Shown: positions 2,413 to 32,000, counted from the stretch's first letter. The stretch is DNA of 32,000 nucleotides from Mycolicibacterium smegmatis (GCF_001457595.1 NZ_LN831039.1:6570001-6602000); one strand, 5' to 3'. Notes: a model not told the origin generated them from the sequence alone. Made by a program: numbers and translations.

Positions 2413-2475
2413 CGTGCGCGTAAGTTGCTCGCGGCCCCGTTGTCGCGGGCCGTACCAGTAAGTATGGTAATTTTT

Positions 2476-2597: not shown

Positions 2598-2650
2598 ATT
2601 CATCGTTTGCCAAGTCAGCACCAAGATCATTTGCGGAAAACCTCTCGTCA

Positions 2651-2673
2651 AATACCTCTGTGACAGAGGTATT
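2651..2673. promoter_or_regulatory. Perfect 11-1-11 palindrome, candidate MarR operator overlapping the promoter
   Basis: 'aatacctctgt g acagaggtatt' is exactly self-complementary. It ends 9 nt before the GTG (2683) of the MarR gene. A TANNNT hexamer 'tattgt' at 2670-2675 overlaps its right arm. Confidence 0.55.
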
Positions 2674-2682
2674 GTTTTTCGT

Positions 2683-4809: not shown

Positions 4810-4867
4810 CCGACCAACCAACTGGGTGGTTTAGTGTGGCAACAGATCACCGAGTAGGGAGGCAGTC

Positions 4868-6025
<1,158 letters not shown>

Positions 6026-6033
6026 GTTGAGCC

Positions 6034-7143: not shown

Positions 7144-7163
7144 TCCTCCCGCGGCAAGGGGAA

Positions 7164-9155: not shown

Positions 9156-9206
9156 ACTAATCAAAGTAAATGAATAGCGTGCCTATGTAAAATTTGGTGG
9201 CGGTTC

Positions 9207-10528: not shown

Positions 10529-10532
<4 letters not shown>
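9207..10532 (-). CDS. pep2: Maltokinase Pep2/Mak (maltose to maltose-1-phosphate)
   Basis: Starts '[20 protein letters not shown]'. Kinase catalytic loop '[12 protein letters not shown]' and 'LIDFEGEP'. ATG 10532-10530 overlaps the treS stop (ATGA). The upstream part of the tracked ORF (to 10730) lies inside treS and is not used. Confidence 0.9.
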
Positions 10533-12310
<1,778 letters not shown>

Positions 12311-16404: not shown

Positions 16405-17261
16405 CGCAGCCACCTCGCGGTGCGACGCATCATCGCGTTGTAGGCGAACATCACGACCGCGACCACCACGATCATCTCCAGCGCCAGGGCGTAGGCGAAC
16501 CCGGACTGTCCCATCACCACCTCACTGGTGAGCGCGGCCCGGATCAGCAGCGGCACGATCGGGCTGCCCTGACTGACCAGGGCAGCCGCGGTGGCGTAGG
16601 CGGCAAATGCGTTGGCGAACAACAACAACGCCGAGCCGAGGAACGCGGGCATCAGCAGCGGCACCGCGACCTCGCGCAGGTACTGCCACGTCGAGGCGCC
16701 GAGATTCACCGCGGCCTCGCGCCACTGCTGGCGCAATCCCTCGAGCGCCGGGATGAACACGATCACCATGAGCGGGATCTGGAAGTACGTGTACACCAGG
16801 ATCAGCCCGGCCAGGCCATAGAGCCAGCCCGAACCCGCGAGGTCCCAGCCGAACAGTTGCCGCACCCACAACGTCAGCACGCCGTTGAGCCCGATGGTCG
16901 CGAGGAACGCGAACGCCAGTGCCACACCGCCGAACTGGGCCAGCACGCTGCACAGCGCCAGCACCGCGCGGCGCAGCATCGACGCCGGTGGGCTGCTGAC
17001 GATCAGCCAGGCGAGCGCCGCGCCCAGCACCGCACCGAGCAGTGCGGTACTGGCCGAGAGGATCACGCTCTTTCCCAGCGCCGTCAGCGCCGACCCGGTG
17101 AACAGCGCGAAGATGCGTTCCAGCGAGAAGGATCCGTCGGCGAAGAACGCCATCACGATCACCGTGACCGTCGGCACGATCAGGAACACCGTCACCACCG
17201 CCACGAAGGGCAGAAGCGGCAACGCGTCCCTGATCTGCCGACCCAGGGTGCGGCCCGACAT
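16401..17261 (-). CDS. ABC importer permease (first)
   Basis: 6-TM protein with EAA loop 'REAAVNLGASTWQYLREVAVPLL'. ATG at 17261, 8 nt after the binding-protein stop. Confidence 0.85.
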   Translation of the reverse strand: MSGRTLGRQIRDALPLLPFVAVVTVFLIVPTVTVIVMAFFADGSFSLERIFALFTGSALTALGKSVILSASTALLGAVLGAALAWLIVSSPPASMLRRAVLALCSVLAQFGGVALAFAFLATIGLNGVLTLWVRQLFGWDLAGSGWLYGLAGLILVYTYFQIPLMVIVFIPALEGLRQQWREAAVNLGASTWQYLREVAVPLLMPAFLGSALLLFANAFAAYATAAALVSQGSPIVPLLIRAALTSEVVMGQSGFAYALALEMIVVVAVVMFAYNAMMRRTARWLR

Positions 17262-17269
17262 AGGTGGTG

Positions 17270-18421
17270 TCAGCCGATCGCCTTGGCCCAGTTGTCGGCC
17301 AGATACTTTGTGGCGGCCTCGGTCTGCTCCGGGGTCGGGTTGGTCACCGGGCCGTGGACCACCGGCAGGTCGGCGAACGCGGCTTTGTCCTCGGTACCCG
17401 CGGCGATCATCGCGTCGGCGCGCACGGGGCGGACACCGCCTGCGGCATACAGGTTCTGGCCCTCATCGCTGAACAGGAACTCCTGCCACAGCCGTGCGGC
17501 CGCCGGATGCGGGGCGCCGGAGTTGATCGCCTGGTAGTAGTAGCCCGCGACAGGCGCGTTCTCGGGCACCAGGACCTGCCAGCTGGGGACCTTCTTGCTC
17601 TCGGTGGCGTTGAGGTAGTTCCAGTCGATCACCACGGGCGTCTGCCCCGACTCGATGGTCGCAGGCGTCGGGTCGACCGGCAGGAAGTTGCCCGCCTGCT
17701 TGAGCTTCGAGAAGAACTCGACGCCGGGGGCGATGTCATCGGCCGAACCGCCCTGCGCGACCGCCACCATCAGCACACCCGAGAATCCGGCGCCGGCCTG
17801 CGTGGGATCGCCGTTGAGCGCGACCTTGCCCTGGTACTCCGGCTTGAGCAGATCTTCGACGCTGGTGACCGGCGGCACCTTGGAGGTGTCGAAGCCGATC
17901 GACATGAAACCGCCGTAGTCGTTGACCCACTTGCCGTCGGCGTCCTTGTACTCCGCCGGGATGTCGTCGAACGTCGCGACCTTGTACGGAGCGAACATCG
18001 ACGTGTTCGCCAGTGCCACCGACTGTCCGAGGTCGAACACGTCGGGCGCACTGCTCTTGCCCTTCTGCTGGTTTGCCGCGTTGATCTCGTCCTGGCTCGA
18101 CGCGTCGGGCTGGGCCGAGTTCACCTTGATGCCGTATTTGTCCTCGAACGCGCTGATGAGCGCGCCGTAGTTCGCCCAATCCGGTGGCAGCGCAATCACG
18201 TTGAGCTCGCCCTCGGCCTTGGCCGCCTCGACCAGCTTGTCCATCCCGCCGAAGTCCTCGGCCGAGGTCGCCTCGGACACCTTGACGCCGCTCTCGGTGT
18301 CACCGCCGCTGGATTCCTTCTCGGGCGGTGCGCAGGCCGCCAGGCCCACGGCGACCAGAGCCGATGCCGCGACGGCGGCGGCTCTGGGCAGGATCCGATG
18401 TGCGGTCGGGAGAATGATCAT
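17270..18421 (-). CDS. ABC importer substrate-binding lipoprotein (solute-binding family 1; Fe3+/polyamine/thiamine-type fold)
   Basis: ATG 18421 is preceded by GGAAGG. Signal peptide plus lipobox 'ALVAVGLAAC'. The body is a typical PotD/AfuA-like binding protein. The substrate cannot be assigned by eye. Confidence 0.85.
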   Translation of the reverse strand: MIILPTAHRILPRAAAVAASALVAVGLAACAPPEKESSGGDTESGVKVSEATSAEDFGGMDKLVEAAKAEGELNVIALPPDWANYGALISAFEDKYGIKVNSAQPDASSQDEINAANQQKGKSSAPDVFDLGQSVALANTSMFAPYKVATFDDIPAEYKDADGKWVNDYGGFMSIGFDTSKVPPVTSVEDLLKPEYQGKVALNGDPTQAGAGFSGVLMVAVAQGGSADDIAPGVEFFSKLKQAGNFLPVDPTPATIESGQTPVVIDWNYLNATESKKVPSWQVLVPENAPVAGYYYQAINSGAPHPAAARLWQEFLFSDEGQNLYAAGGVRPVRADAMIAAGTEDKAAFADLPVVHGPVTNPTPEQTEAATKYLADNWAKAIG

Positions 18422-18650
18422 GGACAGAACCTTCCGATGGTCAGGAGGCGTCGCGGTGGCGCCCCGGTTACCGAAGCTCATCGCCAACCGGTCACCTGGG
18501 TGAACAAGTCCGCGGCAGGACCGCGTCGTTCTGCACAGGCGCATCGCACACTATCGTGACCTCGCCAAACTCGCTGCCGGTTCGCACCCAATCCCGCCGA
18601 TGCGGACCTTGTCGAGCATTTCCCCAGGTCGTCCCGCTAACATCGACAAG

Positions 18651-19605
<955 letters not shown>

Positions 19606-19609
19606 GCCG

Positions 19610-20215
19610 TCACGGCAGGACGCGCAGCCCGTACAGGTAGGTGGTCAGGTACACCTCCAGCACGGGGGCACGCGCATCCCTGGCTTCGGGGATCGTGATG
19701 AGAAGTGCGTAGAGACCGACCACGAACGACACGCCGACGTGCATCACGTCGACATCCGCCGGTATCTCGCCGCGTTGCTGCGCGCGCTGGAGTTCGGAGA
19801 TGATGACCGTGAGTGCCGGGTATCTGGTCCACTCCTGCGAGGGCGGCCTGGTGGTGGAGAAGTGCAGCGCCAGAAAGTCTTTGAACAGTCTGCGACCCAG
19901 CCGACGCTCGAGCTTCTCCAGCAGTCGGACGGTCTCGGCGAGCGTGTCGCGCACGCTGTGCGGGCGGGTGTACAGCCGCGTGAGTTCGGTGACCATGCGT
20001 TCCTGCTCGCGGGCCTCCAACTCGATCAGAACGTGTTCCTTGGTGGGGAAATGAAAGAAGAAGGTGCCGTGGGCAACTCCCGCGGCCGCCACGATGGCCG
20101 CGGTGTCGGCCGCCGCGATGCCGTTGCGCTTGAACTCCGCGAGCGCCGCGCCGAGCAGGCGCTCCCGCGTCTGCATGCCCTTCCTCCACCGGCCGGTGCG
20201 TTCCTGCCTCAGCAC
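19610..20215 (-). CDS. TetR-family transcriptional regulator
   Basis: N-terminal HTH 'RERLLGAALAEFKRNGIAAADTAAIVAAAGVAHGTFFFHFPTKEHVL'. It is divergent from the membrane operon at 20397. Confidence 0.88.
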   Translation of the reverse strand: MLRQERTGRWRKGMQTRERLLGAALAEFKRNGIAAADTAAIVAAAGVAHGTFFFHFPTKEHVLIELEAREQERMVTELTRLYTRPHSVRDTLAETVRLLEKLERRLGRRLFKDFLALHFSTTRPPSQEWTRYPALTVIISELQRAQQRGEIPADVDVMHVGVSFVVGLYALLITIPEARDARAPVLEVYLTTYLYGLRVLP

Positions 20216-20396
20216 ACGTCACCTCTTCACTGACTTCACTCAGTTTCACGCTTCCGTTTGCCTTGCGCGCACGCTACCGTGCAGAGCGGAGAACACAGGC
20301 AGTAATCGGAAACTCGCAGGCAAACATCGGTCGTCCGGACAGTGCGTCATCCACTTCCGCACTCTCTGGGCTGACCTGAGTCACTTGAACCGTACG

Positions 20397-21164
20397 ATGT
20401 CGGAGGTATCGGTGCAGATCCTCGAACAGGCCCAGGACCTGCCCACGGCGGGGAACATCAAAGCGCAGTGGGTCAGCCTGTGGACCGGGCCCGCAGTCGG
20501 ACTGGTGCTGCTGGCGGCGTTCGTGGCGTTCCCCGGCTTCCGGCCCCCGATGCCCCCGGACCTTCCGGCCGATCAGGTCGCGGCGTTCTACGCCGAGAAC
20601 ACCGCGTGGATGCGGTTCTCCCAGGTCACGTTCAACCTGTGCGGAATCCTGGTGCTGCCGTTCTTCATGGTGATCGCCGTGCAGATGAAGCGCATGGCCA
20701 ACCAGACCCACATCTTCGCCTACTGCTACCTGACCGCGGTGGTCAGCGGCGCCACCACATTCGCGTTGTCCAACATCCTGTTCCTGGTCGCGGCGTTCCG
20801 CCCCGGGCGCAACCCCGAACTGGTCATGCTGCTCAACGACCTGGCCTGGATCGTGTTCATCGCGCCCATCGGCATGGTGGTCAGCCAGTTCGTGATGCTC
20901 GCGCTCGCGGTCTACTTCGACACCAAAGGACACGGCGAACCGATCCTGCCGCGATGGGTGGGCCACTTCTCGCTGGCCACCGCGGTCGTCATGATCCCCG
21001 CCGCGGGCGCCGCGGTGTTCCACAGCGGACCGCTGGCATGGGACGGGTTCCTGTCGTTCTGGATGCGCAACGGCGCGTTCGCGGTCTTCGTGGTCGTGAT
21101 GTTCTTCGTGCTGCGCCGCGCGGTGATCCGCCAGGCCGTCGCCGAGGGTGTGGTGGCCGGATGA
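20397..21164 (+). CDS. Polytopic membrane protein, paralog A (unknown family)
   Basis: ATG 20397, about 6 TM segments. Shares the blocks 'PPMPPDLPADQVAAFYAENT', 'FRPGRNPELVMLLNDLAW' and 'GPLAWDGFLSFW' with the next gene. Confidence 0.75.
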   Translation: MSEVSVQILEQAQDLPTAGNIKAQWVSLWTGPAVGLVLLAAFVAFPGFRPPMPPDLPADQVAAFYAENTAWMRFSQVTFNLCGILVLPFFMVIAVQMKRMANQTHIFAYCYLTAVVSGATTFALSNILFLVAAFRPGRNPELVMLLNDLAWIVFIAPIGMVVSQFVMLALAVYFDTKGHGEPILPRWVGHFSLATAVVMIPAAGAAVFHSGPLAWDGFLSFWMRNGAFAVFVVVMFFVLRRAVIRQAVAEGVVAG

Positions 21165-21910
21165 GCACACTGACCCCGGAGCATCCCGTCGGCGCAGAGG
21201 TCAAACCCCGTCGCGGCAAGCCCGACGTGGTGTTGATGACGTGGTTCTTCCCGGCCTGGTACGCCGTCTTCGGCGTGATCATCTGCCTGATGGCGCGTGT
21301 CACGCCGCCGCCGCGCCCGGACGTCACCGACGCGGACAAGGTCGCGTTCTTCGTCGAGAACGGCACGACCATCCGGATCGGCTTCTGTCTGCTGCTGATC
21401 CTGCTGGGCGGGGCGGCGCTCACCAACGGCCTGGTGGCCTACCACGTGAAACGGATGTCGGTCGGTTCGGTGTTCGCGTACGCCTACATCGGCGGCATGG
21501 GCGTGGGTGCGCTGCCGGGCTTCCTGCTGGTCGCGGTGTGTTTCCTGACCGCGACGTTCCGCGCCGATCGCAACCCCGAACAGGTCAGCCTGCTCTACGA
21601 CCTCGGCATGCTGTCCTACAACGGATCGCTGGGCTGTTTCTCGGCCGCCTATCTGGTGCTGGCCCTCGCGATCCTCTATGACCGCAACGAGATCTTCCCC
21701 AAATGGTTTGCCTACGTCTCCATCTGGCAGATCATCACCGAGGTCATCGCGACCCAGATGTTCCTGTTCCAGGCCGGTCCCTTCGCGTGGAACGGCTCAC
21801 TGGCGTTCTGGTGGGCGGTGGTGGTGTTCTGCGTGTGGCTGACCGCGTTGATCGTGATTCTCAAGCAGGCCGCCGAGCGCCAGGCGCTCGACGAGCCGGC
21901 ACTGGACTGA
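21161..21910 (+). CDS. Polytopic membrane protein, paralog B (unknown family)
   Basis: ATG 21161 overlaps the paralog A stop (ATGA). Matching blocks are 'PPPRPDVTDADKVAFFVENG', 'FRADRNPEQVSLLYDLGM' and 'GPFAWNGSLAFW'. Confidence 0.75.
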   Translation: MSTLTPEHPVGAEVKPRRGKPDVVLMTWFFPAWYAVFGVIICLMARVTPPPRPDVTDADKVAFFVENGTTIRIGFCLLLILLGGAALTNGLVAYHVKRMSVGSVFAYAYIGGMGVGALPGFLLVAVCFLTATFRADRNPEQVSLLYDLGMLSYNGSLGCFSAAYLVLALAILYDRNEIFPKWFAYVSIWQIITEVIATQMFLFQAGPFAWNGSLAFWWAVVVFCVWLTALIVILKQAAERQALDEPALD

Positions 21911-21929
21911 CTGCGACAGAGGATGTTTC

Positions 21930-22505
21930 GTGACGCGAACCGACGAAATCACCGCGACTGCGGGCCGCGGGCATCTGCCCGGCGACGGCCACATGTGGGT
22001 CATGGTGCTGGGCGATCTGGTGATCTTCGCCGGATACTTCGTCATCTTCATGATCTACCGGACCATGAATCCCGACGAGTTCCTGCGGGCCCAACAACAT
22101 CTCGCGATCAACATCGGGGTGCTCAACACCGTGATCCTGCTGAGCAGTTCGTGGTTCGTCGCGCGCGCGGTCCTGGCGACCCGCGCGGCCCGGTACGAGA
22201 CGGCCATCCGATTGGTTCGCGCCGGCGGCGCGCTCGGTGTGGCCTTCATGGTGATCAAGAGTTACGAGTGGTTCGTCAAGATCCGTGCCGGACACACCAA
22301 TTCCGAGATGTTCTTCTCGTTCTACTACGTGATCACCGGTGTGCACCTGGTCCACGTGCTCATCGGGTTGATCGTGCTGGGTGTGCTGGTCCGCGAACTG
22401 CGCACCCGTCGCAGGCCGTCGATGGTGGAATCCGGCGCCGTGTACTGGCACATGGTGGACCTGCTGTGGATCGTGATCTTCGGCCTGCTCTACGTGATGA
22501 GGTGA
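21930..22505 (+). CDS. Heme-copper oxidase subunit III-like protein (CoxIII/CyoC/NorE family)
   Basis: 191 aa with 5 TM segments. GTG start with an AGAGGA RBS. 'GHMWVMVLGDLVIFAGYF', 'FFSFYYVITGVHLVHVLIGL' and 'AVYWHMVDLLWIVIFGLLYV' are the classic subunit III blocks. Confidence 0.85.
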   Translation: MTRTDEITATAGRGHLPGDGHMWVMVLGDLVIFAGYFVIFMIYRTMNPDEFLRAQQHLAINIGVLNTVILLSSSWFVARAVLATRAARYETAIRLVRAGGALGVAFMVIKSYEWFVKIRAGHTNSEMFFSFYYVITGVHLVHVLIGLIVLGVLVRELRTRRRPSMVESGAVYWHMVDLLWIVIFGLLYVMR

Positions 22506-22506
22506 C

Positions 22507-22800
22507 ATGGCCACGCGACCAACGACATCCGGTGAGAGCACCCGCAGCATCACGTGGGTCTGGCTGGCACTGACCGCGATCACGATCGGGTCGTGGTGGC
22601 TCGCACCCGCACACATCACGGGAACCGTCCAGGCGAGCACCACGATCACGGCCGTCGTGCTGGTCCTCACGTTCGTCAAGTGCCGTCTGATCATTCGGCA
22701 TTTCATGGAGGTTCGCACCGCACCCCGCTGGCTCGGGCACGCCACCGACGCGTGGCTCGTCGTGCTGCTCACCACGGTGTTCGTGATCTATCTGTTCTGA
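22507..22800 (+). CDS. Small 3-TM cytochrome oxidase subunit IV-like protein (CyoD / prokaryotic COX4 type)
   Basis: 97 aa, starting 1 nt after the previous stop. 'VLVLTFVKCRLIIRHFMEV' resembles the K-x-x-L-V...FMH block of CyoD-type subunits. Confidence 0.7.
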   Translation: MATRPTTSGESTRSITWVWLALTAITIGSWWLAPAHITGTVQASTTITAVVLVLTFVKCRLIIRHFMEVRTAPRWLGHATDAWLVVLLTTVFVIYLF

Positions 22801-22821
22801 TCTCACCGTATGGTGGTGGCG

Positions 22822-23427
22822 ATGAGCGACGCGCCGCGCAAGAAGCCGCGCCAGCGCCGGTCGAGAGAGACCGTCGAGGTGGTGCTGGAGGCCGCCGCGC
22901 AGGTTTTCGACCGCGAGGGACTCGCCGCGACCACCAACCGCATCGCCGAACGCGCCGGGGTGTCCATCGGTTCGCTCTACCAGTACTTCCCCAACAAGCA
23001 CGCGCTGCTCAACGCGCTCGCGCAGCGGCACGTGCAGACGGCCTCTGCGCGTCTCGACGCGGTCTTCACCGAACTGCGCCACGAGACACCAGAATTCGAC
23101 CAGACCCTGCGGTCGATCCTCGCGGTCGTCGTCGACCTGCACCACGACCGGCCCGCCCTACACCGGTTGATGCACCGCGTCGCGGTCCCGCGCGACGATC
23201 AACTCGCGGTGCTGCAGGAATTCGAGGACCGGCTCGCCGGCGAGGTCGCGTTCCACCTCGTGCGGTGCGGCCGCGTCCGGGATCCCGACGACGCCTCGGC
23301 GACGGCCCGCACCGTGGTGCACGCGGTCGACGCGCACCTGCACCGCGTGCTACCCCACCGCGAAGTCACCCGGGAGGCCGCCGTCGGCGATCTGGTCGGC
23401 CTGGTCGAACGGCTGCTGCGGCCCTGA
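22822..23427 (+). CDS. TetR-family transcriptional regulator
   Basis: HTH 'ETVEVVLEAAAQVFDREGLAATTNRIAERAGVSIGSLYQYFPNKHALL'. ATG 22822 is preferred; GTG 22810 is an alternative. Confidence 0.85.
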   Translation: MSDAPRKKPRQRRSRETVEVVLEAAAQVFDREGLAATTNRIAERAGVSIGSLYQYFPNKHALLNALAQRHVQTASARLDAVFTELRHETPEFDQTLRSILAVVVDLHHDRPALHRLMHRVAVPRDDQLAVLQEFEDRLAGEVAFHLVRCGRVRDPDDASATARTVVHAVDAHLHRVLPHREVTREAAVGDLVGLVERLLRP

Positions 23428-24366
23428 CGACCCACCACCGGCGAGCACGCTGTCGCAGACCCCGCGCAGCGCAGTCACCAGCTGACCGATCCCGGGCTCC
23501 TCGACCGGATAGTGACCACAGCTCTGCAGCAATACAGTCCGAGTCGGCGCCGAGATGCGGTCGGCGAACCGGATGCTCAGCGACCGCGGCGTCCACCGGT
23601 CGGCGCCCGGGTGCACCAGGGTCACGGATGCCGCGTCGAAGCGCTCCGCTGCGGTATGGCGAAAGTTCATCCAGCTTCCGAGAAACCCGAGCGGGATGTG
23701 CACGCCACCGCCGCGGGTGTCGCGCAGCACCAGTCGGTTCAGGTCCGGATTGCCGCTCATCGCAGCCATTTTCACGATCCATCGGATGGGCATCCGCACC
23801 CCGCCCACGTACCGGTCGGCCGCACCGAGGACCCGCGGCGCCACCCGCCCGAGCACCGGTACGCGCGCCGCGGCCGCCCGCGCCGCCGGGTCGGCCGGAT
23901 CGAGCAGGCACGTCGCCACCACGTGGGCGACCAGTCCGGTACGCGCGGCGACCTCGTAACCGAGCAGGCCGCCCATGCTCGCCCCGAACACCACGAGCGG
24001 ACGGTCGTCGTTCGCACACTCGTGGCGCACCAGATCGCTGACACACTCGACCCAGTCGTCGTAGCGCACCCGCCGCGGTTGCGGTACCCGGGTGTGCCCG
24101 TACAACGGCAGATCCGGCACCAGCACGTCGGCGCCCTCGGCGGCCGCCAACCCGGCGAACGGCCACAGCGCCGCGGCGTGCCCACCCGCGCCGTGCAGCA
24201 CCAGAACCCGCGCCCGACTGTCCGGCAGCTGCGCGCGCAGAATGTGCACGTCGTGTCCCCGCCACGACCACCACGTCGACGCCGGGGCAAGCGCCTGCCG
24301 GTACCCGGCGGGCAGGAACCCCGCATAGCGCTCGATGTCGGACCGAACTTCCCGCATGACATCCAT
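23350..24366 (-). CDS. Alpha/beta-fold hydrolase
   Basis: 'VLVLHGAGGHAA', nucleophile elbow 'VVFGASMGGLLG' (GxSxG), and C-terminal 'SCGHYPVEEP' His block. ATG 24366 is chosen. The 3' end overlaps the convergent TetR gene by 78 nt. Confidence 0.8.
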   Translation of the reverse strand: MDVMREVRSDIERYAGFLPAGYRQALAPASTWWSWRGHDVHILRAQLPDSRARVLVLHGAGGHAAALWPFAGLAAAEGADVLVPDLPLYGHTRVPQPRRVRYDDWVECVSDLVRHECANDDRPLVVFGASMGGLLGYEVAARTGLVAHVVATCLLDPADPAARAAAARVPVLGRVAPRVLGAADRYVGGVRMPIRWIVKMAAMSGNPDLNRLVLRDTRGGGVHIPLGFLGSWMNFRHTAAERFDAASVTLVHPGADRWTPRSLSIRFADRISAPTRTVLLQSCGHYPVEEPGIGQLVTALRGVCDSVLAGGGSSGPQQPFDQADQIADGGLPGDFAVG

Positions 24367-24551
24367 ACCGCAAGCCTGTGCCGCGCCGAATAGCCTGACA
24401 ACTCGCATTCGGTGGTCACAAAGCCGCCGGTGAACAGGCATCCGTCGTCGGCTGCTCGCGTTTCTGATCCGCCTGAAACTGGTGACAAACCCGGTTGTCA
24501 ACCTCCACTAGGCTTTTGCCATCTCGACCAGATGACGAGGGGAGCCTGCCG

Positions 24552-24836
24552 ATGGAGGTCGATCCGGAGATCCTGCGCGCTTTTGCCGGCCAGGTGGACA
24601 TCGCATCGGGGCTCATTCGCGAAGCCGATGCCGGAGACAAGGTCGCGACCGCCGCGGATGGGTTGGACGGCTCGACGACACAGTGGGCGGCACGACTCGT
24701 CGGATCGCACGTCAAAGAGATCGCGGCGCAGATCGCCGCTGACGTCAACGACATGGGCACCGCAGTTCGTGGCGCGGGCAACTCCTACGAAGTGACCGAT
24801 GCCGGTCTGGCGGGCAGCTTCGGGAAGATCTTCTGA
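24552..24836 (+). CDS. Small helical ESX-substrate-like protein (EspC/DUF2580-like) with a C-terminal YxxxD motif
   Basis: ATG 24552 with GAGGGGAG upstream, 94 aa. N-terminal 'MEVDPEILRAFAGQVD' and C-terminal 'GNSYEVTDAGLAGSFGKIF' (Y79-x3-D83, nt 24786-24800). Confidence 0.7.
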   Translation: MEVDPEILRAFAGQVDIASGLIREADAGDKVATAADGLDGSTTQWAARLVGSHVKEIAAQIAADVNDMGTAVRGAGNSYEVTDAGLAGSFGKIF

Positions 24837-24839
24837 CCA

Positions 24840-26132
24840 GTGTTGCCTTCACGTCCCCGCCTGGAGCGCTGGAACCCCGACTCGTTGTCGACGTCCGGTC
24901 AGAGCGCCCGAGAAGCCGGCGCGGCTGTCGGTCAAGCAGTAGCTCGTATCAGCAACAACCTCAAGACCATGCCGGAAACGCGATCGTGGTCGGGCGGCGC
25001 TCACGATGCGGCGGTCTCGATGTTCGAGCGGGCACAGAAGCAGACGGATAACTTTTCCAAGTACACGGCAGCCATCGGAGACGCGTTGAAAGGCGGCGCC
25101 GGACCGATCGGTAGCGCCCGCACAACACTGCTCAACAAGGCCGACGAGATCGATCAGAGCGGCCAATTATGGGTGAACGACCAATGGGTGGTCTTGATCA
25201 AAGGCGGCCAGATGACCGTCGAACAGGCCGCCGCGCTCGAAAAGCGTGCTCAGTCGGAGCAGCGGACTGTCATTACTCTTCTGTCCGCAGTCGGCAAGGC
25301 CGATGAAGACACGGCCGCGAAAGTGACGACTGCCGCGCAGCAGTTTGGTTTCGCAGTGCCCGACTCAGGTGGGCTCGGACCGCTGTTTCCTGGAGTCGCG
25401 AAACCAGACGACGAAGTGCCCAATCCGATGTTCCCCCTCGGGGTTCTACAGCAAGCTGTAATCCGCGACGGCGACATGAAGCAAACCGTCCGAGAGACAA
25501 CGGTCGAGAAGAAATACAATCCTGAGACCGGCGAAGAAATATCGACAGTTACGACCAGATACATGATGGACGGTAGTAGGTATGTCGAGACCGTCAACGC
25601 GAAAGCATCCTTCTCGGATCGTTCACCATTGACGACCGTCGTCCATTTCGACAAAGATAATAAGCAGATTTCCAGGACAGAAACTGTCACTTGGAAACCA
25701 TGGGCACCCAGTAGCCTTGCTGGCAAGACTACTAGTACAACTACCTACGCTGACGGCACAATAGCTGAATTGGAGCAATTACCAAACGGCGAGCAATTCG
25801 TGACGATAAGAACCCCGGATGCCCGGGAACCGAATGTGCCGATCAACCTCACCGACCATCCTGTGTTGAGTACCGTGAGCGCCGCGGGTGGCAAATACCT
25901 CGGGCCCGGAGTAGCAGTTGCCACGGCTCTGTGGGACTATCACGTGGCAGACTCCGACTTCAAGAAGTGTGTGGCCGCCGCCGAGGGAATCACAGGGGTA
26001 ACCGCCGGCACACTAGCAGGTCTTGCAACACTGGAGTTCTCTCCGGCTGTCTCGATACCGGTGGGATTGCTCGCAGCCGGTGGCGGCGAGGCTCTGGGCA
26101 ACTGGATCGGGAATACATTTTGTCCACGATGA
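24840..26132 (+). CDS. Modular WxG-bearing protein: helical N-domain, beta-rich middle, double glycine-zipper hydrophobic C-terminus (candidate T7SS-exported membrane toxin)
   Basis: 430 aa. GTG 24840 lies 3 nt after the upstream stop. W50-S-G52 is at nt 24987-24995. GxxxGxxxG occurs twice (G386/G390/G394 and G416/G420/G424). The CDS call is solid; the function is inferred. Confidence 0.75.
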   Translation: MLPSRPRLERWNPDSLSTSGQSAREAGAAVGQAVARISNNLKTMPETRSWSGGAHDAAVSMFERAQKQTDNFSKYTAAIGDALKGGAGPIGSARTTLLNKADEIDQSGQLWVNDQWVVLIKGGQMTVEQAAALEKRAQSEQRTVITLLSAVGKADEDTAAKVTTAAQQFGFAVPDSGGLGPLFPGVAKPDDEVPNPMFPLGVLQQAVIRDGDMKQTVRETTVEKKYNPETGEEISTVTTRYMMDGSRYVETVNAKASFSDRSPLTTVVHFDKDNKQISRTETVTWKPWAPSSLAGKTTSTTTYADGTIAELEQLPNGEQFVTIRTPDAREPNVPINLTDHPVLSTVSAAGGKYLGPGVAVATALWDYHVADSDFKKCVAAAEGITGVTAGTLAGLATLEFSPAVSIPVGLLAAGGGEALGNWIGNTFCPR

Positions 26133-26890
26133 GAACGGCCGGCGTACTACGTGTCGCATTCGTCTTCGCCATCCTGACAGGTGGAATTGTCTACATCGCC
26201 GTATGGGCGGCCATCTGGTTCGTTCATGGCGATTACATGACCACGGCATTGTGCCTCGGCGGTGTCGCATTGCTGACCGGCCTGATCCTTCACACAGCCT
26301 TCGGGGTATCAGGCAGAGCACGTCCGCGTACAGAATTTGGCCGTGACGGAACACTGGTCCGTCCTCAAAAACTCCCTGACGTGGCTTTTGGAACAGGCCT
26401 GGCCATAGGAGTACTTTCCGCCGCGATATATCTCGCTTTCTCGCAGCTGGGTACCGTCGCGTACACACCATCAGGAATTCTCCGCGTCGCATTTCCCGCG
26501 GCTTGCGCGTTCTATGTGATTTTCGGCATCCCAGTCCTCTATCGGATGTTGAAATTCCGCGACGGAAGCCATCTTCGTATCGACCCCAGCGGTTTCGAAG
26601 TGTGGGACGGCCAATGGAATACATTTGTGCGCGGGGGATGGGACGATGTTCAGCAGATTCTCGATCACCCCGTACGGGGGAAGACATCAGTTACCGATGT
26701 CATCGTTTTCGTCCTCGGTAAGCGAAAGAGCGCGAAGCTGGTAACCAACAGCATCACCGCCGACAGCCATGCGCTGAGGGAGTGGGTCCGTTTTTACTGG
26801 CAGCACCCGGAATATCGGGAGGAACTTGTCGACAGCCGAGGCGTGCACCGCCTCGAAGACCAGAGGTTCTCCCCGAGTGATGCGGCCTGA
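26129..26890 (+). CDS. 4-TM membrane protein with a C-terminal PH-like soluble domain (candidate immunity protein)
   Basis: ATG 26129 overlaps the upstream TGA (ATGA at 26129-26132). 253 aa with four hydrophobic helices in residues ~6-140. The C-terminal part is 'LRIDPSGFEVWDGQWNTFVRGGWDDVQQI...VIVFVLGKRKSAKLVTN', resembling a bacterial PH domain. Confidence 0.75.
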   Translation: MRTAGVLRVAFVFAILTGGIVYIAVWAAIWFVHGDYMTTALCLGGVALLTGLILHTAFGVSGRARPRTEFGRDGTLVRPQKLPDVAFGTGLAIGVLSAAIYLAFSQLGTVAYTPSGILRVAFPAACAFYVIFGIPVLYRMLKFRDGSHLRIDPSGFEVWDGQWNTFVRGGWDDVQQILDHPVRGKTSVTDVIVFVLGKRKSAKLVTNSITADSHALREWVRFYWQHPEYREELVDSRGVHRLEDQRFSPSDAA

Positions 26891-26956: not shown

Positions 26957-26986
26957 TGAGGTGAGCCCCCTGTAGTGGTCCAGTCG
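26957..26986. repeat. Left terminal inverted repeat of the outer IS3-family element
   Basis: Starts TGAGG and shares the inner block GTGGTCCAGTCG with the right end. Confidence 0.7.
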
Positions 26987-27037
26987 TTGTGGGGACTCTG
27001 TTGCCCGAGTGTTCGGGCAGGAAGAATCACCAACGAC

Positions 27038-27325
27038 ATGACATCGAACAAACGCCGGCGGCATACCCCGGATCAGATCATCCGCAAGCTCGCCGAGGGC
27101 AACAAGCTCCTGGGGACCGGCCAGGAACTCGCCGAGGTGTGCCGGCACCTGGAGATCACCGAGTCGACCTGGCATCGCTGGGTGGCCCAGTACGGCGGCA
27201 TGAAAGCCAACGAGGCCAAACGCCTCAAGGAGCTCGAGGCGGAGAACGCCCGGCTCAAGAAGCTGGTCGCCAACCAGGCCCTCGACATCGACATGCTCAA
27301 GGAGATCTCGTCGGGAAACTTCTGA
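27038..27325 (+). CDS. IS3-family transposase OrfA (HTH + leucine zipper)
   Basis: 'MTSNKRRRHTPDQIIRKLAEGNKLL...ESTWHRWVAQYGGMKANEAKRLKELEAENARLKKLVANQALDIDMLKE'. Confidence 0.87.
   Translation: MTSNKRRRHTPDQIIRKLAEGNKLLGTGQELAEVCRHLEITESTWHRWVAQYGGMKANEAKRLKELEAENARLKKLVANQALDIDMLKEISSGNF
27313..27319 (+). promoter_or_regulatory. Candidate -1 programmed ribosomal frameshift heptamer G_GGA_AAC
   Basis: An X_XXY_YYZ heptamer lies in the OrfA frame (tcG GGA AAC ttc tga). The -1 frame reads GKLLTPNRKR and continues into OrfB. Confidence 0.6.
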
Positions 27326-28121
27326 CCCCGAACCGCAAGCGCAGCGCCGTCATCGCTCTGCGTGAACGGTTCGGGGTCTCTGAGCGCCGCGCGTGCTCGG
27401 TCGTCGGGCTGCACCGCTCGACGATGCGTCTGACGCCGGCTCCGGTCACCACCGAGGAGACCGAGTTGCGGGCGTGGCTGCGCCGGTTCTCCACTGATCG
27501 GCCGCGCTGGGGGTGGCGCCGGGCGGCGAAGATGGCCCGTCGCGCCGGCTGGAATGCCAACAACAAGCGCATCCGCCGACTGTGGCGCGAGGAGGGCCTG
27601 CGGGTGCCTCAGCGGCGCCGCAAGAAGCGGCTGACGGGGATCGGGGTCGCCGTGGGGGCGATGTCGCCGATCCGTCCGAATGCGATCTGGGCGATGGACT
27701 TTCAGTTTGATACCACCGCTGATGGTCGCACGCTGAAGATGCTCAACGTGATCGACGAGTTCACCCGCGAAGCCCTCGCCATCGAGGTGGATCGCAGCAT
27801 CGATGCCGACGGGGTCGTGGCTGTGCTGGATCGGCTCGCGCTCGTCCATGGGGCGCCGCACTATGTGCGTTTCGACAACGGGCCTGAGTTCGTCGCGCAC
27901 GCGGTGCGCGATTGGTGTCGATTCAACAGCGCCGGTTCACTTTTCATCGATCCGGGTTCGCCATGGCAGAACGCCTGGATCGAATCGTTTAACGGCAGAC
28001 TGCGAGACGAACTGCTCAACCTGTGGCGCTTCGATTCGCTACTGGAAGCCCGGGTGATCATCGAGGACTGGCGCTGCGATTACAACGCCAACCGGCCCCA
28101 CTCAGCCCACGGTGACCGCAC
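27313..28121 (+). pseudogene. IS3-family transposase OrfB (DDE), 3'-interrupted by the nested IS; the last 18 sense codons and stop resume at 29489-29543
   Basis: DDE blocks 'IWAMDFQFD', 'VRFDNGPEF' and 'WQNAWIESFNGRLRDE'. The frame breaks after '...NRPHSAHGDR'. Joining 28121 to 29489 restores '...GDRTPAEFALQWATTHQPKVA*'. Confidence 0.8.
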
Positions 28122-28151
28122 TGATCCGCCCCGGCGTGTCTGGAGAGTTCT
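28122..28151. repeat. Left IR of the nested IS6110-like element
   Basis: 'tgatccgccccggcgtgtctggagagttct'. Confidence 0.85.
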
Positions 28152-28172
28152 TCCGTTGGGAAGGATGGGCAC

Positions 28173-28499
28173 GTGGGATCGAAGTCATCGAGGCGGTATC
28201 CAGACGAGCTGAAGGTGCGGGCGGTGCAGATGGTGGCCGATCTGCGCAGCGAGACAGTTTCGGAGTGGGAGGCGATGGGCCGGGTTGCTGACCTGCTGGG
28301 CGTCGGTACTGCCGAAACGGTGCGCAAATGGGTCCGCCAGGCTGAGATCGACGCCGGCTCTCGGGCGGGGCAGACCAGCGAGGAATCCGAGGTCCTGCGC
28401 AAGCTGCGCCGGGAGAATGCCGAACTCAAGCGGGCCAACGCGATCTTGAAGGCGGCCTCGGTTTTCTTCGCCGCCGAGCTCGACCGGCCCTCTCAGTAG
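28173..28499 (+). CDS. IS6110-like transposase OrfA
   Basis: 'MGSKSSRRYPDELKVRAVQMVADLRSETVSEWEAMGRVADLLGVGTAETVRKWVRQAEIDAG...LRRENAELKRANAILKAASVFFAAELDRPSQ'. Confidence 0.88.
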   Translation: MGSKSSRRYPDELKVRAVQMVADLRSETVSEWEAMGRVADLLGVGTAETVRKWVRQAEIDAGSRAGQTSEESEVLRKLRRENAELKRANAILKAASVFFAAELDRPSQ

Positions 28500-28501
28500 T
28501 C

Positions 28502-29455
28502 GTGGAGTTCATCAGCGCCCACCAGCACATGCGGGTGGGCGTTGATGGTCTCAAGTGGGGTGTCGAGTCGATGTGCGCTGTGCTTTCCGAGTACGGCGTC
28601 ACGATCGCCCCGTCGACGTATTACGCCCACCGCGCCCGTCAGGGCCCCTCGAAAGCCGACTGGGCCGATGCGCAGGTGATCGATGCGATCTGGCAGCTTC
28701 GCCAATCGCAGAGTCTGTACCGAGTCCTGGGCGCTCGTAAGACATGGATTGTATTGCGCACCAATGGTATCGACGTATCGCGCTGTGTCGTGGAACGGGT
28801 CATGCGGGAGATGGGTTGGCGGGGTGCGTGCAAGCGCCGGCGGGTGCGCACCACCGTCGCCGATCCGGCAGCGACGCGAGCCCCGGATCGGGTCCGGCGT
28901 AATTTCGTCGCCGGTGCGCCTGACCGATTGTGGGTGGCCGATTTCACCTACTGCCGGACTCGTGCCGGCTGGGCCTACACGGCGTTCGTCACCGATGTCT
29001 ATGCCCGCAAGATCGTGGGTTGGAAGGTGGCTACCGAGATGACCCAGAAGCTGGTGACCGATGCGATCGACCACGCTATCGACACCAGAAAGCGTTCGGG
29101 TGCAGCATCTTTGGATTCACTTATCCACCACAGCGACGCGGGCTCGCAATACACCGCGGTCGCGTTCACCGAACGTCTGGCCGCTGAGGGGATCCTGCCT
29201 TCAGTCGGATCCGTCGGGGATAGTTTCGATAATGCTCTGGCCGAATCGGTGAACAGCAGCTACAAGACCGAACTCATCGACCGCCAGCCGCTCTATCCCG
29301 GTGCCACCGAACTGGCGCTGGGGACCGCCGAATGGGTGGCCTTCTACAACCGTCAGCGACCCAACGGCTACTGCCAGGACCTGACCCCCGATCGGGCCGA
29401 AGCGCTCTACTACCATCGCCAACGGCACCCTCATGCCGAGGAGGCACTCAGATAA
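28502..29455 (+). CDS. IS6110-like transposase OrfB (DDE integrase domain), probably expressed as an OrfAB fusion by a -1 frameshift
   Basis: It is in the -1 frame relative to OrfA, and that frame is open back to at least 28442. DDE blocks 'LWVADFTYCRT', 'LIHHSDAGSQYT' and 'DNALAESVNSSYKTELI'. Confidence 0.88.
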   Translation: MEFISAHQHMRVGVDGLKWGVESMCAVLSEYGVTIAPSTYYAHRARQGPSKADWADAQVIDAIWQLRQSQSLYRVLGARKTWIVLRTNGIDVSRCVVERVMREMGWRGACKRRRVRTTVADPAATRAPDRVRRNFVAGAPDRLWVADFTYCRTRAGWAYTAFVTDVYARKIVGWKVATEMTQKLVTDAIDHAIDTRKRSGAASLDSLIHHSDAGSQYTAVAFTERLAAEGILPSVGSVGDSFDNALAESVNSSYKTELIDRQPLYPGATELALGTAEWVAFYNRQRPNGYCQDLTPDRAEALYYHRQRHPHAEEALR

Positions 29456-29485
29456 GAGAACCTCCCGACATGCCGGGGCGGATCA
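29456..29485. repeat. Right IR of the nested IS6110-like element
   Basis: The reverse complement is 'tgatccgccccggcatgtcgggaggttctc'. Confidence 0.85.
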
Positions 29486-29543
29486 CACCCCAGCCGAGTT
29501 TGCCCTACAGTGGGCCACGACCCATCAACCGAAAGTCGCATAG

Positions 29544-29572
29544 CGACTGGACCACCAAACGGGTCCCCCTCA
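29544..29572. repeat. Right terminal inverted repeat of the outer IS3-family element
   Basis: 'cgactggaccaccaaacgggtccccctca', starting immediately after the restored OrfB stop (29541-29543). Confidence 0.7.
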
Positions 29573-29786: not shown

Positions 29787-30290
29787 CTAAATGCTCGATG
29801 GCAGAGCGGTATAGGACACGATGCGCGCACCGTTCTCGACCAGGTTGAGCGGCAAAGGATCCCGTCCCCACAGACTGCACACCCACAGTGCGCGTGAGCG
29901 CGCTGCACCGTGCACAGACCGAAGTCGCACCGTCGCATCTGAATGAGGGACGATGCGGCCACGCCAATCCGCGCGTGTACCAGAAGCACTGTCCTGCAAG
30001 GCGTCTGCGAGAGCAGCCGAGACCGAGGCCGCCCACGCCGGGGCGGCGGCTGCCGGTAGTGCAGCCACCTCGAACGCCGACCACAGATCAGGCGGCAGCG
30101 TCTCATCGAACCCTTCCGGGCACACTCCGGAGTACCCGACGCGCGATACGACCATCTTGGCGACCGTGGTCCCCGCGACGTGGTCGAGCACACCCTGGCG
30201 GTCTTCACCGTCCCACAGCAACGCCGCCGTGGCCGCAGAAATGGTCTGTTCGGCTGCGCGCTCTAAAATCGCCCAGTCAACTGCCATCAT
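29787..30290 (-). CDS. Hypothetical 167-aa protein translationally coupled to the upstream Pro/Gly/Ser-rich protein
   Basis: ATG 30290 overlaps the upstream TGA (ATGA). 'MMAVDWAILERAAEQTISAATAALLWDGEDRQGVLDH...'. I recognise no family. GC3 is only moderate. Confidence 0.55.
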   Translation of the reverse strand: MMAVDWAILERAAEQTISAATAALLWDGEDRQGVLDHVAGTTVAKMVVSRVGYSGVCPEGFDETLPPDLWSAFEVAALPAAAAPAWAASVSAALADALQDSASGTRADWRGRIVPHSDATVRLRSVHGAARSRALWVCSLWGRDPLPLNLVENGARIVSYTALPSSI

Positions 30291-32000
30291 GATCCCCCGC
30301 CCCATGGGGTGCTCACGATCTGCATCGCCAGATAAGCGATGTCGGCATACTTGATGTCCGGGCCGTTGTCCGGGTTCCACAACAGCAACAGTTCAGTCAG
30401 ACGAGCCAAATCGTGGCAGGCCAACACATACGGCGAGGCCACCTCGTTGCCGGCTAACCACCCCGGCCGCATGGCAGAGCCGTTCGCCGCCGCGGTCACC
30501 GATTCCGCCTCCAGTGCTCTCCACCGATCGTGTGACACCGGCAACCCGTTGCCCAATAGCTGCAGAATCTCCCGAATCACCGGCGACACCGCAAGATCTC
30601 GAACCGATCCCGCACGCCCCAACGCCATTTCAGCCGCCGACAGCGTTGTGCGCCACGCTTCGGATCGGTCCGGCAGTGGGCCCTCACCGAATCCGGTCAG
30701 CCGAGCGTATTCGGCACGGTTCAAGGTCTCCAACCGGTGGCTGTGTGTGTCGTCGAGCGGTGAGGGCGGCGCACCATCAGAGATCGGCGACAGAGACCGC
30801 GAGCAGTCTTCATAGTGCTCGATCACCGACCGCGCCGGCATCGATGAGCCCCCGAGATCCGTCGAGACCGCCAACGCCCACAACTCGATATCCGAACGGT
30901 GCTCAGAGGCCAACTTCGCATACGCCAGCATCGTCTCGGCCGGATTCGCCCAACTGAACCACCGCGCCCGAAACTCTGGTGGGAGCCCGCCATCGGCGAA
31001 CAACATCCGCGCCGACCGCGGCACAAACACCCCCGCTGGGAGGTAACCGGCACCCTCGCTGTTGACGATCAACGTCTCCACACCCGAGGACGTGCGGAAC
31101 ACACCCACACACCAATCCATGTACGGATACGCCCTGGAATCGTGCAACAGCTGATACAGCAACTGAGAAGCACTCGCCAGCAACGGGTCTGGCAGCGAGG
31201 AGCGGATCGCTTCGCTCGCAGCTCCCGCCGAAGCGCCCACACCGGAGCCCACCACCCCCGGCGGCAACGGCGCCACCGGGCCGGCAGAAGACCCACCACC
31301 ACCAGTCGGTGCGGTCGGCGCCGGCGCAGGACCGGCCGACGGTGTCACCGCGGCAGCCGGTGTCGCAGACCGCGCCACATCAGACCCGAACGGCGGCAGC
31401 GGCCCCATCGGGGCCGCCGGCACACCCGCCGAACCCACAGACCCCACCCCAGGACTTGCCGGCGCCGAAGACGGAACCGCCGGAGCCGACGACGCAGCCG
31501 AACCCGCAGCGACCGTCGACGGCGTCGCCCCCGCCGGAGCCGAAGGCACCCCAGAGGGAACAGCACTACCCGGTGAGCCCGTCGGCTGCGGAGAAACCGG
31601 CGGTGCAAATGTCGCCGGTCCGCCACCAGCGCTCAAACCAGCGCTCAAACCACGAGAAAAGTCCGACGGCGCACCAGCCGATGTCGACAACGGCGACTGC
31701 GGAAGGCCGCCGGCCCCCGGTACACCGCCACTGCTGGGCATGCCCGCACTGCCCAAACCGCCCGGCGAGCTCAACCCCTGAGTCGGCAGCCCGCCCGAAC
31801 CCAAACCGCTTGGCGCCGACGGCATCTTCGGAACACCGCCACTACCAAGGCTGCCTGCCGACCCCAGAGACGAAGCAGACGAACCACCGCCACCACTCAC
31901 GGGCAGTGCTGTTGGTGCTGGAGGGCCATCCTCGCTTGACTGCAAGCCATGACCACGTCTGTCACTTGGTGTGGGTGTGGCCCCTTCACCTTGGCTGGTG
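30287..32000 (-). CDS. Pro/Gly/Ser-rich protein with a conserved-looking about 300-aa C-terminal globular domain (5'-partial; ESX-associated-like)
   Basis: The reading frame is open from the stop at 30287-30289 to the window edge, so the TTG at 31945 in the ORF track is not necessarily the start. Low-complexity G/S/P/A region covers ~31207-32000. The globular domain begins 'LLYQLLHDSRAYPYMDWCVGVFRTSSGVETLIVNSEGAGYLPAGVFVPRS...'. Confidence 0.7.
   Translation of the reverse strand, partial: TSQGEGATPTPSDRRGHGLQSSEDGPPAPTALPVSGGGGSSASSLGSAGSLGSGGVPKMPSAPSGLGSGGLPTQGLSSPGGLGSAGMPSSGGVPGAGGLPQSPLSTSAGAPSDFSRGLSAGLSAGGGPATFAPPVSPQPTGSPGSAVPSGVPSAPAGATPSTVAAGSAASSAPAVPSSAPASPGVGSVGSAGVPAAPMGPLPPFGSDVARSATPAAAVTPSAGPAPAPTAPTGGGGSSAGPVAPLPPGVVGSGVGASAGAASEAIRSSLPDPLLASASQLLYQLLHDSRAYPYMDWCVGVFRTSSGVETLIVNSEGAGYLPAGVFVPRSARMLFADGGLPPEFRARWFSWANPAETMLAYAKLASEHRSDIELWALAVSTDLGGSSMPARSVIEHYEDCSRSLSPISDGAPPSPLDDTHSHRLETLNRAEYARLTGFGEGPLPDRSEAWRTTLSAAEMALGRAGSVRDLAVSPVIREILQLLGNGLPVSHDRWRALEAESVTAAANGSAMRPGWLAGNEVASPYVLACHDLARLTELLLLWNPDNGPDIKYADIAYLAMQIVSTPWGGGS

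Follow-up and report, generated by a model that had tools for sequence, protein, structure and literature searches.

A candidate effector-immunity cassette linked to type VII secretion in Mycolicibacterium smegmatis

What could three translationally coupled genes bearing marks of type VII secretion (T7SS) be doing in a chromosomal region whose tested genes include no ESX core gene? This question is raised by a 32,000-nt stretch of Mycolicibacterium smegmatis DNA (NZ_LN831039.1:6570001-6602000), called here the window, which is 100% identical to M. smegmatis CP082846.1 and in which an earlier note, made from the sequence alone, had described an orphan toxin-immunity cassette. The answer favored here, with a confidence slightly better than even, is that genes 1 to 3 constitute an accessory effector-immunity cassette relying on an ESX system (T7SSa) encoded elsewhere, in which gene 2 would encode a membrane-depolarising toxin and gene 3 the corresponding immunity protein. 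The gene structure, the domain identities, the conservation, the synteny, the lone and duplicated copies of gene 3 and the variability between strains are directly established by the present analysis. The cassette comprises the following features, numbered from the first nucleotide of the window.

24552-24836, plus strand: gene 1, 94 amino acids (aa), from an ATG at 24552 to a TGA at 24834-24836
24786-24800, plus strand: YxxxD motif of gene 1 (Y79-E-V-T-D83), candidate half of a bipartite T7SS signal
24840-26132, plus strand: gene 2, GTG start, 430 aa
24840-25340, plus strand: N-domain of gene 2 (aa 1-167), WXG100-like helical bundle
24987-24995, plus strand: WxG motif of gene 2 (aa 50-52), in the N-domain
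25434-25811, plus strand: middle domain of gene 2 (aa 199-324), a helix (199-215) and eight strands (217-324)
25860-26132, plus strand: C-terminal region of gene 2 (aa 341-430), Ala/Gly-rich helices with glycine zippers, candidate membrane-active payload
26129-26890, plus strand: gene 3, ATG start, 253 aa

Three coupled genes and their products

The three co-directional open reading frames (ORFs) described earlier are real and lie where the earlier note had placed them. The stop codon of gene 1 is separated from the start of gene 2 by 3 nt (CCA), and the gene 2 stop and the gene 3 start have an ATGA in common (CCACGATGAGAACG). A Shine-Dalgarno-like GGGGAG is located about 8 nt 5' of gene 1; a simple sigma-70 scan upstream of this gene, which is uninformative for mycobacteria, returned no promoter. 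The drop in GC content previously noticed inside gene 2 and continuing through gene 3 was measured as 0.53 at positions 25501-26000 and 0.58 across gene 3, against 0.65-0.72 in the flanks, so that a low-GC stretch (0.53-0.58) covers gene 3 and the latter half of gene 2. At third codon positions, the GC content (GC3) ranges from 0.57 to 0.77 for the cassette genes, compared with 0.86-0.90 for the genes around them. As also proposed, the window ORFs tested, which are ordinary metabolic and transport genes, include no ESX core gene, and a megablast search of PLSDB for a plasmid origin gave no match.

By its profile matches, gene 1 is an EspC/PE-like small helical T7SS partner, which agrees with the EspC-type assignment first made from the sequence alone. 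It scores just over the gathering threshold of Pfam EspC PF10824 (E-value 5.6e-5, 23.9 bits for a cut-off of 23.5) and more weakly against Pfam PE (E 7e-4), and NCBI labels it 'type VII secretion target'. Across a family of 23 orthologues, EspC is matched by 22 (best E 3.7e-9), WXG100 by 14 and PE by 12. The aspartate of the YxxxD motif (aa 79-83) is present in 42/42 homologues, and the motif opens with Y in 27 of them, with F in 14 and with C in one. A profile search yielded 800 relatives, the 120 listed being all close orthologues of 94-97 aa that added nothing on the diversity of payloads, and nothing useful was returned by sequence or profile searches of the PDB.

Gene 2 begins, as judged from profiles and from its AlphaFold2 model (mean predicted local distance difference test, pLDDT, 74), with a WXG100-like domain that is weakly PPE-like by fold. 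The WxG-led helical N-domain anticipated by the earlier note is indeed modelled as a helical bundle over aa 1-167, with a pLDDT mostly above 85 and the WxG turn lying between helices 15-43/45-48 and 53-106. In the 59 sequences of the family, W50 and G52 never vary, and 53 of these sequences match Pfam WXG100; NCBIfam provides a weak WXG100 match only. The top-probability Foldseek matches of the N-domain in the PDB, PPE15 (5xfs_B, probability 0.98) and PPE41 (6vj5_B, probability 0.77), are not significant (E 0.18-0.47, TM-score <=0.45); both chains come from EspG5 complexes. No Pfam PPE match was obtained for gene 2 or the family members searched, Pfam LXG (PF04740) was matched by no family member, WXG100 being found instead, and a PDB profile search with the family gave only weak WXG100/ESAT-6-like matches (E up to 10). 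Membership of the EspA/EspE family was considered and rejected, a single one of 59 members being matched with an E of 0.06. The sequence has no signal-peptide-like N-terminus. At the end of the helical N-domain, a hydrophobic and strongly conserved beta-hairpin tip, LWVNDQWVVLI (aa 110-120, positions 25167-25199), contains the invariant residues L110, W116, V118 and L119; by analogy with the tip of PPE proteins, it is possibly an EspG-binding site.

The beta-rich middle domain previously described is recovered in the model, where its eight strands reach a pLDDT of about 90. It is conserved across the family and has no Pfam match and no significant fold or sequence match in the PDB. The glycine-zipper character of the C-terminus is likewise borne out. 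Family members hold on average 5.2 zipper motifs in their last 100 aa, compared with 1.7 in shuffled sequences, an excess of about threefold, and with 0.55 in the rest of the protein. In gene 2 itself these motifs start at aa 347, 386, 412 and 416 and include the zippers G386xxxG390xxxG394 and A412-G416-G420-G424, within a region (aa 331-430) that is modelled as helical at a pLDDT below 50. The sole cysteines of the protein are C377, which is invariant, and C428, which is conserved, like G420 and G424, in at least 90% of the family; the number of cysteines is 2 or 4 in 36/38 homologues. No glycoside hydrolase domain was detected in gene 2 with Pfam.

The product of gene 3 is modelled by AlphaFold2 (pLDDT 89) with four transmembrane (TM) helices, at residues 2-32, 36-60, 81-107 and 118-143, together with a split beta-rich domain and helices. 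The earlier description as a translationally coupled four-TM protein with a PH-like domain is thus retained, the PH-like part being a fold resemblance, since the best-probability Foldseek matches, to PH-like and PTB domains (probability up to 0.97), have E-values of about 0.1-0.4 that are not significant. Pfam bPH was matched by none of 40 family members at E-values up to 0.1, the sequence has no lipobox, and PADLOC gave no defence-system match. The 61-80 loop and the C-terminal domain are rich in basic residues, from which the PH-like domain can be placed in the cytoplasm. The TM region is the fastest-evolving part of the protein, with a mean identity of 0.25. Gene 3 is put forward as a candidate immunity protein, its protective role being predicted with the same confidence, a little above even, as the toxin-immunity reading as a whole.

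Distribution of the family and fate of gene 3

Homologous loci were sampled from other genomes with an 11-sequence alignment scan, as gene 2 alone found no locus in the representative genomes, the representative M. smegmatis genome being without this gene. Among the 49 loci obtained, gene 1 is found upstream of gene 2 in 41, and an overlapping or adjacent gene 3 directly follows gene 2 in all of the 48 that could be evaluated. Several paralogous cassettes are found per genome, at differing sites.

One segment of the window is variable between strains:

24518-26140, no strand assigned: strain-variable segment with gene 1 and gene 2, missing from M. smegmatis MKD8-type strains

The MKD8 locus (L008, positions 1-7906) aligns to window positions 16620-24517 with 97.2% identity, and homology restarts only at 26141-26869, within a gene 3 homologue of 71% nucleotide identity. 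M. smegmatis MKD8 and many other assemblies carry at this site neither gene 1 nor gene 2 and a lone gene 3 homologue, 68% identical in aa sequence. Between the window gene 3 and this lone copy, dN/dS is 0.11, with a dS of about 1.8 that is near saturation. In a contig collection, 53 blocks index the MKD8-type gene 3 protein, against 15 contigs in which gene 2 was read. The intact and identical cassette is present in at least two complete genomes and several further contigs, CP082846 and CP080273 carrying it in full.

Additional copies of gene 3 are found in six loci (L010, L021, L029, L031, L047 and L050). They are 25-55% identical to the cognate gene 3 in the five loci measured, and the extra copy of M. 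thermoresistibile resembles the cognate gene of another species (70%) more than its own (40%). Conversely, gene 2 is split or frameshifted next to an intact gene 3 in L029, L031, L053, L057 and M. smegmatis LT350. These sequence comparisons, covering lone and duplicated gene 3 copies and the decay of gene 2, lend independent support to the toxin-immunity reading and provide the initial idea with comparative evidence that it did not have. Such patterns are also reported for the orphan immunity genes of the staphylococcal EsxX/ExiCD system (PMC12744356).

A second lone gene 3, 54% identical, was observed in the variable part of the ESX-1 locus of M. sediminis (L058, JACKUW010000007, positions 1-10753). 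The gene order is PPE, two WXG100, EspI-like, EccD, a 279-aa gene, gene 3, Conj_beta_prop_9, IS21, ESX1-associated and EspK_C, so that gene 3 lies between the genes in EccD/EspJ position and the EspK_C/ESX1-associated genes. This region is the equivalent of the mating-identity (mid) segment of M. smegmatis.

The cassette had also been read as an instance of polymorphic-toxin grammar, in which one trafficking domain carries variable payloads. In its strict sense, this part of the proposal is not supported for the gene 2 family, of which about 200 homologues have kept one and the same architecture in three parts. A full-length search returned at least 180 homologues, nearly all of 428-460 aa and all from fast-growing Mycolicibacterium/Mycobacterium, aligned with 100% query coverage down to 36% identity, and each 20-aa block of gene 2 can be aligned over 107 full-length sequences. 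The N-domain alone (aa 1-179) produced only 97 matches among 1.84 billion cluster representatives; nearly all full-length matches (420-480 aa) have middle and C-terminal regions of the same kind, even at 27-35% N-domain identity. Domains are not swapped in this family, but the payload does diverge in sequence and is less conserved than the N-domain, the mean pairwise identity being 0.57 in the N-domain against 0.43 and 0.42 in the payload.

Two exceptions appeared among the N-domain matches, both of them remote: P0267 (E 4e-5), with an Abhydrolase_8 payload and small overlapping genes at its flanks, and P0270 (E 4.5e-4), with a CHAP domain. They place the gene 2 carrier distantly in a superfamily with enzyme payloads, of which its own family has retained a single fixed one. 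P0270 is a WXG100-CHAP protein of 345 aa (L063/L064, positions 4001-5038) encoded in an ESX-1-like locus, next to EccD, EspI-like and EsxA genes and a GH19-like gene, and is a candidate T7SS cell-wall hydrolase effector.

In the closest relatives, a fourth gene belongs, according to synteny and profile matches, to the module and had been overlooked by the earlier note. A divergent EspG-family gene, convergent to gene 3 or placed after an inserted gene, is present in 24/25 loci of the closer clade (>=46% identity). Pfam PF14011 is matched by 12/12 of the proteins tested (best E 4.6e-9); no NCBIfam match was found for this family, and a PDB search gave no sequence match to the solved EspG1, EspG3 and EspG5 structures. 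Together with genes 1 and 2, this gene makes the module resemble a miniature PE/PPE/EspG system located outside the ESX loci. At the M. smegmatis site, the M. lutetiense module reads gene 1, gene 2, gene 3, Conj_beta_prop_9, EspG-like and EF-G. The Conj_beta_prop_9 gene (precomputed PF27095), of about 440 aa, occupies positions 5761-7116 (L060/L061) between gene 3 and the EspG-like gene, and a gap of similar size separates these two genes in L014, L017 and L033.

In an M. iranicum-like sub-clade, the cassette is found without gene 1 and adjoins a tRNA-Pro(CGG), located at 5755-5829 in L020, 5817-5891 in L022, 4957-5031 in L053 and 820-894 in L021. The distance to the cassette is about 200 bp or less in L020 and L022 and 1-5 kb in L053 and L021. 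This proximity suggests the integration of an island at a tRNA site.

Proposed mechanism and competing explanations

According to the toxin-immunity reading, gene 1 and the WxG N-domain of gene 2 would pair as a helical bundle presenting the bipartite T7SS signal, to which the EspG-like chaperone encoded next door in close relatives would be dedicated. Once exported, the zipper helices of gene 2 would insert in the cytoplasmic membrane of a neighbouring mycobacterium, oligomerise and dissipate its membrane potential, a Cys377-Cys428 disulfide probably forming outside the cytoplasm. Among glycine-zipper toxins, depolarisation has been shown experimentally for EsxX (PMC12744356), whereas TelE destabilises the membrane instead (PMC10434224). 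Gene 3 would shield the producer as well as the non-producers holding a lone copy. Within the membrane, the zipper helices would be neutralised by the rapidly evolving bundle of four TM helices of gene 3, and the conserved PH-like domain on its cytosolic side may retain the toxin until export. ESX-1 as the export route is hinted at by the lone copy of M. sediminis, by P0270 and by an EspK_C protein encoded beside the cassette; ESX-4 is the route shown for the mycobacterial toxin EatA (PMC13444075). A bolder version, distinctly unlikely as it stands, would make of the module a self-contained T7SSa weapon of four genes exported by ESX-1, with an EspC/PE-like partner, a glycine-zipper toxin fused to a carrier of WXG100 type that is possibly PPE-like, a private EspG-like chaperone and a dual-compartment immunity protein, the cytosolic PH-like domain holding the toxin before export and the TM bundle blocking the incoming toxin.

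Several observations weigh against this interpretation. The architecture of the family is fixed, with no C-terminal domain swapping found. Homology to known toxin or immunity families was not found, neither the gene 2 payload nor gene 3 having a relative in Pfam, NCBIfam, PADLOC or the families represented in the PDB. The C-terminus of gene 2 is only moderately hydrophobic (KD19 maximum 1.51), and is modelled with a pLDDT below 50. The proposal gives no role to the well-folded beta domain of this protein. The first residue of the gene 1 motif is F instead of Y in 14/42 homologues. In gene 3, conservation is highest in the cytosolic part, an unusual situation if the protein is to give immunity to a toxin that comes from outside. 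The TM region of gene 3 co-varies with gene 2 (partial r of 0.40 with the C-terminus, 0.21 with the N-domain and 0.05 with the middle domain), but the signal is modest and confounded by common descent, and so counts for little. The frameshifts of gene 2 in draft assemblies may be sequencing errors. Finally, the EspG-like gene is found neither in the window nor in the strains of L001 and L002, and the distant clade has no linked EspG-like gene next to its intact triad.

PPE proteins act in outer-membrane transport. Some of the points above would also suit a module acting on its own envelope, in which gene 2 would be a PE/PPE-type anchor or channel and gene 3 its inner-membrane partner or assembly factor, without any killing. 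The PE/PPE-like pair with its EspG-like chaperone, the payload that is never swapped in a fixed architecture, the strongly conserved cytosolic domain of gene 3, suggestive of a conserved cellular partner, and the well-folded beta domain, fit for a structural or binding role, all speak for such a module. It is nevertheless considered unlikely: a lone gene 3 persists under purifying selection where gene 2 is absent, divergent extra copies of gene 3 exist at some loci, gene 2 decays where gene 3 stays intact, and the presence of the cassette varies between strains in an island setting with low GC3. This behavior is typical of toxin-immunity pairs and not of a housekeeping envelope function.

It could also be argued, independently of the other rival explanations, that the cassette is an inert remnant in this particular strain, where the EspG-like gene would have been lost to an insertion sequence (IS) or a rearrangement and export with it. 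The EspG-like gene found in 24/25 closer-clade loci is indeed absent here, nested IS elements start 76 nt past the end of gene 3, and other M. smegmatis strains have a truncated or split gene 2. The three ORFs are intact and translationally coupled, however, the cassette is identical in at least two complete genomes and several contigs, a whole distant clade retains the intact triad without a linked EspG-like gene, and EspG1 or EspG3 could serve in trans, all of which makes this explanation rather doubtful. Least probable, and indeed very unlikely, is a non-lethal ESX-1-linked marker of kinship or mating compatibility acting through divergent gene 2/gene 3 alleles, comparable to the mid/Msmeg0070 phenotype: alleles of 71% nucleotide identity do occur at one site inside 97%-identical flanks, a gene 3 homologue lies in the mid-equivalent part of ESX-1 beside Conj_beta_prop_9 and EspK_C genes, a Conj_beta_prop_9 gene is part of the M. 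lutetiense module, an EspK_C protein adjoins the cassette in the window and a polymorphic kin-recognition gene is documented in esx1 (PMC9040860), but the mid proteins are unrelated, Msmeg0070 being a proline-rich protein with one TM (PMC9040860), a glycine zipper at the C-terminus is a hallmark of T7SSb toxins (PMC10434224, PMC12744356), and the link to conjugation genes rests on few neighbourhoods and on precomputed Pfam names.

Related systems and neighbouring genes

The nearest counterparts of the putative toxin-immunity cassette are found in Firmicutes, where T7SS toxins that have a glycine zipper, and polytopic immunity proteins prone to occur as orphans, are already known, namely EsxX/ExiCD (PMC12744356) and TelE (PMC10434224). 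EsxX, from the T7SSb of S. aureus ST398, is targeted by a helical domain at its N-terminus and has small helical partners, and its C-terminal glycine zipper depolarises membranes, an activity that is predicted here for the zipper C-terminus of gene 2; ExiCD is a polytopic membrane immunity with orphan genes in non-producers (PMC12744356), as lone copies exist of the candidate gene 3. No sequence homology to EsxX or TelE was detected when the gene 2 family profile was compared with PDB chains only. EsxX carries an LXG domain (PF04740) and uses a T7SSb, while the present cassette combines WXG100-like and EspC/PE-like proteins, with an EspG-like gene in relatives, in the T7SSa style. Immunity also differs, ExiC/ExiD and the soluble ExiAB being opposed to a single four-TM, PH-like candidate, gene 3. 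TelE/TipE of Streptococcus gallolyticus is similar in its C-terminal glycine zipper, essential for membrane damage by TelE, and in its adjacent immunity gene, but has an LXG N-domain, no beta-rich middle domain, and in TipE a small DUF5085 protein instead of a four-TM/PH one (PMC10434224).

In mycobacteria, the claim of the earlier note that CpnT/TNT was the only T7SS-linked toxin characterised is out of date, since Benedict et al. described in June 2026 the ESX-4-dependent EatA/TapA1/TapA2/EatI of Mycobacterium abscessus and surveyed numerous further loci of mycobacteria that follow this grammar, of which 47% carry a payload of unknown function (PMC13444075). The Eat loci share with the cassette one or more small helical partners upstream, a helical effector N-domain, a downstream gene that is protective in Eat and putatively so here, and variability between strains. 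They differ by the GH183 arabinanase payload of EatA, the lipoprotein inhibitor EatI and two Tap genes, all absent here, where a single partner gene is found (PMC13444075). The N-domain of EatA clusters with T7SSb helical domains (PMC13444075), that of gene 2 being weakly nearest to PPE folds, and the ESX-4 dependence of Eat contrasts with the ESX-1 hints and the EspG-like gene of relatives in this family. CpnT/TNT of M. tuberculosis, with EsxE-EsxF, is a toxin that depends on ESX, begins with a carrier domain and has its immunity factor encoded next to it, but the payload, an NAD+ glycohydrolase, attacks host cells, immunity comes from the soluble cytosolic protein IFT, and there is no glycine zipper. 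The gene order, with the small YxxxD partner ahead of the WxG one, recalls PE/PPE-EspG and EspA/EspC, as do the matches of gene 1 to the EspC and PE Pfams and the EspG-family gene adjacent in relatives; the cassette is distinguished by the absence of PPE or EspA_EspE Pfam membership, by its location outside the ESX loci and by its coupled four-TM gene. Identity with the mid/Msmeg0070 genes of M. smegmatis was also considered and rejected, those proteins being proline-rich with a single TM (PMC9040860).

In full-text literature searches, neither a glycine-zipper T7SS toxin of mycobacteria nor the four-TM/PH family nor the orphan EspG-like gene was found described. If the toxin-immunity reading were correct, gene 2 would be the first candidate membrane-targeting T7SS toxin of mycobacteria, and the first such toxin to be recognised in PE/PPE style, with an EspG-like chaperone of its own. 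It would extend the precedent of EatA and ESX-4 to another payload class and possibly to another ESX system, and gene 3 would found a new immunity family without a Pfam entry. The four-gene version would in addition make it the first interbacterial toxin of mycobacteria that depolarises membranes, and would tie ESX-1, associated so far with conjugation in M. smegmatis, to strain antagonism or kin discrimination. As the general concept was already published in 2026, the surprise for specialists should be moderate, for a conserved module that appears computationally well supported. The cassette is found in a standard genetic model, and natural strain pairs that differ at a single site make it easy to test.

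Two further features follow the cassette in the window.

26967-29563, no strand assigned: nested IS3-family elements, outer inverted repeats (IRs) at 26967-26991 and 29539-29563, inner IS at 28122-29485
29787-32000, minus strand: neighbouring effector-like cassette, a 166-aa gene (29787-30287) and the C-terminal part of an 828-aa EspK_C protein, from 30287 to past the window end

The IS pile-up reported downstream of gene 3 is thus present in the form of nested IS3-type elements, the outer IR starting at 26967, which is 76 nt past the gene 3 stop and not 66 as first given. The inner IS3-type element is inserted in the outer one and has 24-nt IRs that are 92% complementary. The elements encode rve and HTH transposase domains and fill the place of the convergent EspG-like gene of relatives. 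In CP080273, the same inner IS of 1365 bp occurs at another location, in inverted orientation.

In this second cassette (L001, positions 14948-18452), the 828-aa protein has a precomputed EspK_C domain (PF27215) and a weakly WXG100_2-like N-terminus, and is preceded by a 165-aa gene and followed by the overlapping 166-aa gene. Just past the window end (L001, positions 18676-21293), a 140-aa gene precedes a protein of more than 546 aa that ends with a GH-E domain, an HNH/EndoVII nuclease toxin domain (PF14410, E 5e-12). With the EspK_C and GH-E cassettes lying beside genes 1-3, the island holds at least three effector-like cassettes. On the other side of the cassette, at about 20412-21910 of the window (L001, positions 5573-7071), a COX3/COX4-like pair is preceded by two genes that overlap in tandem, each encoding about 250 aa without Pfam match; the short DNA segments of 84% identity that they share suggest a tandem duplication.

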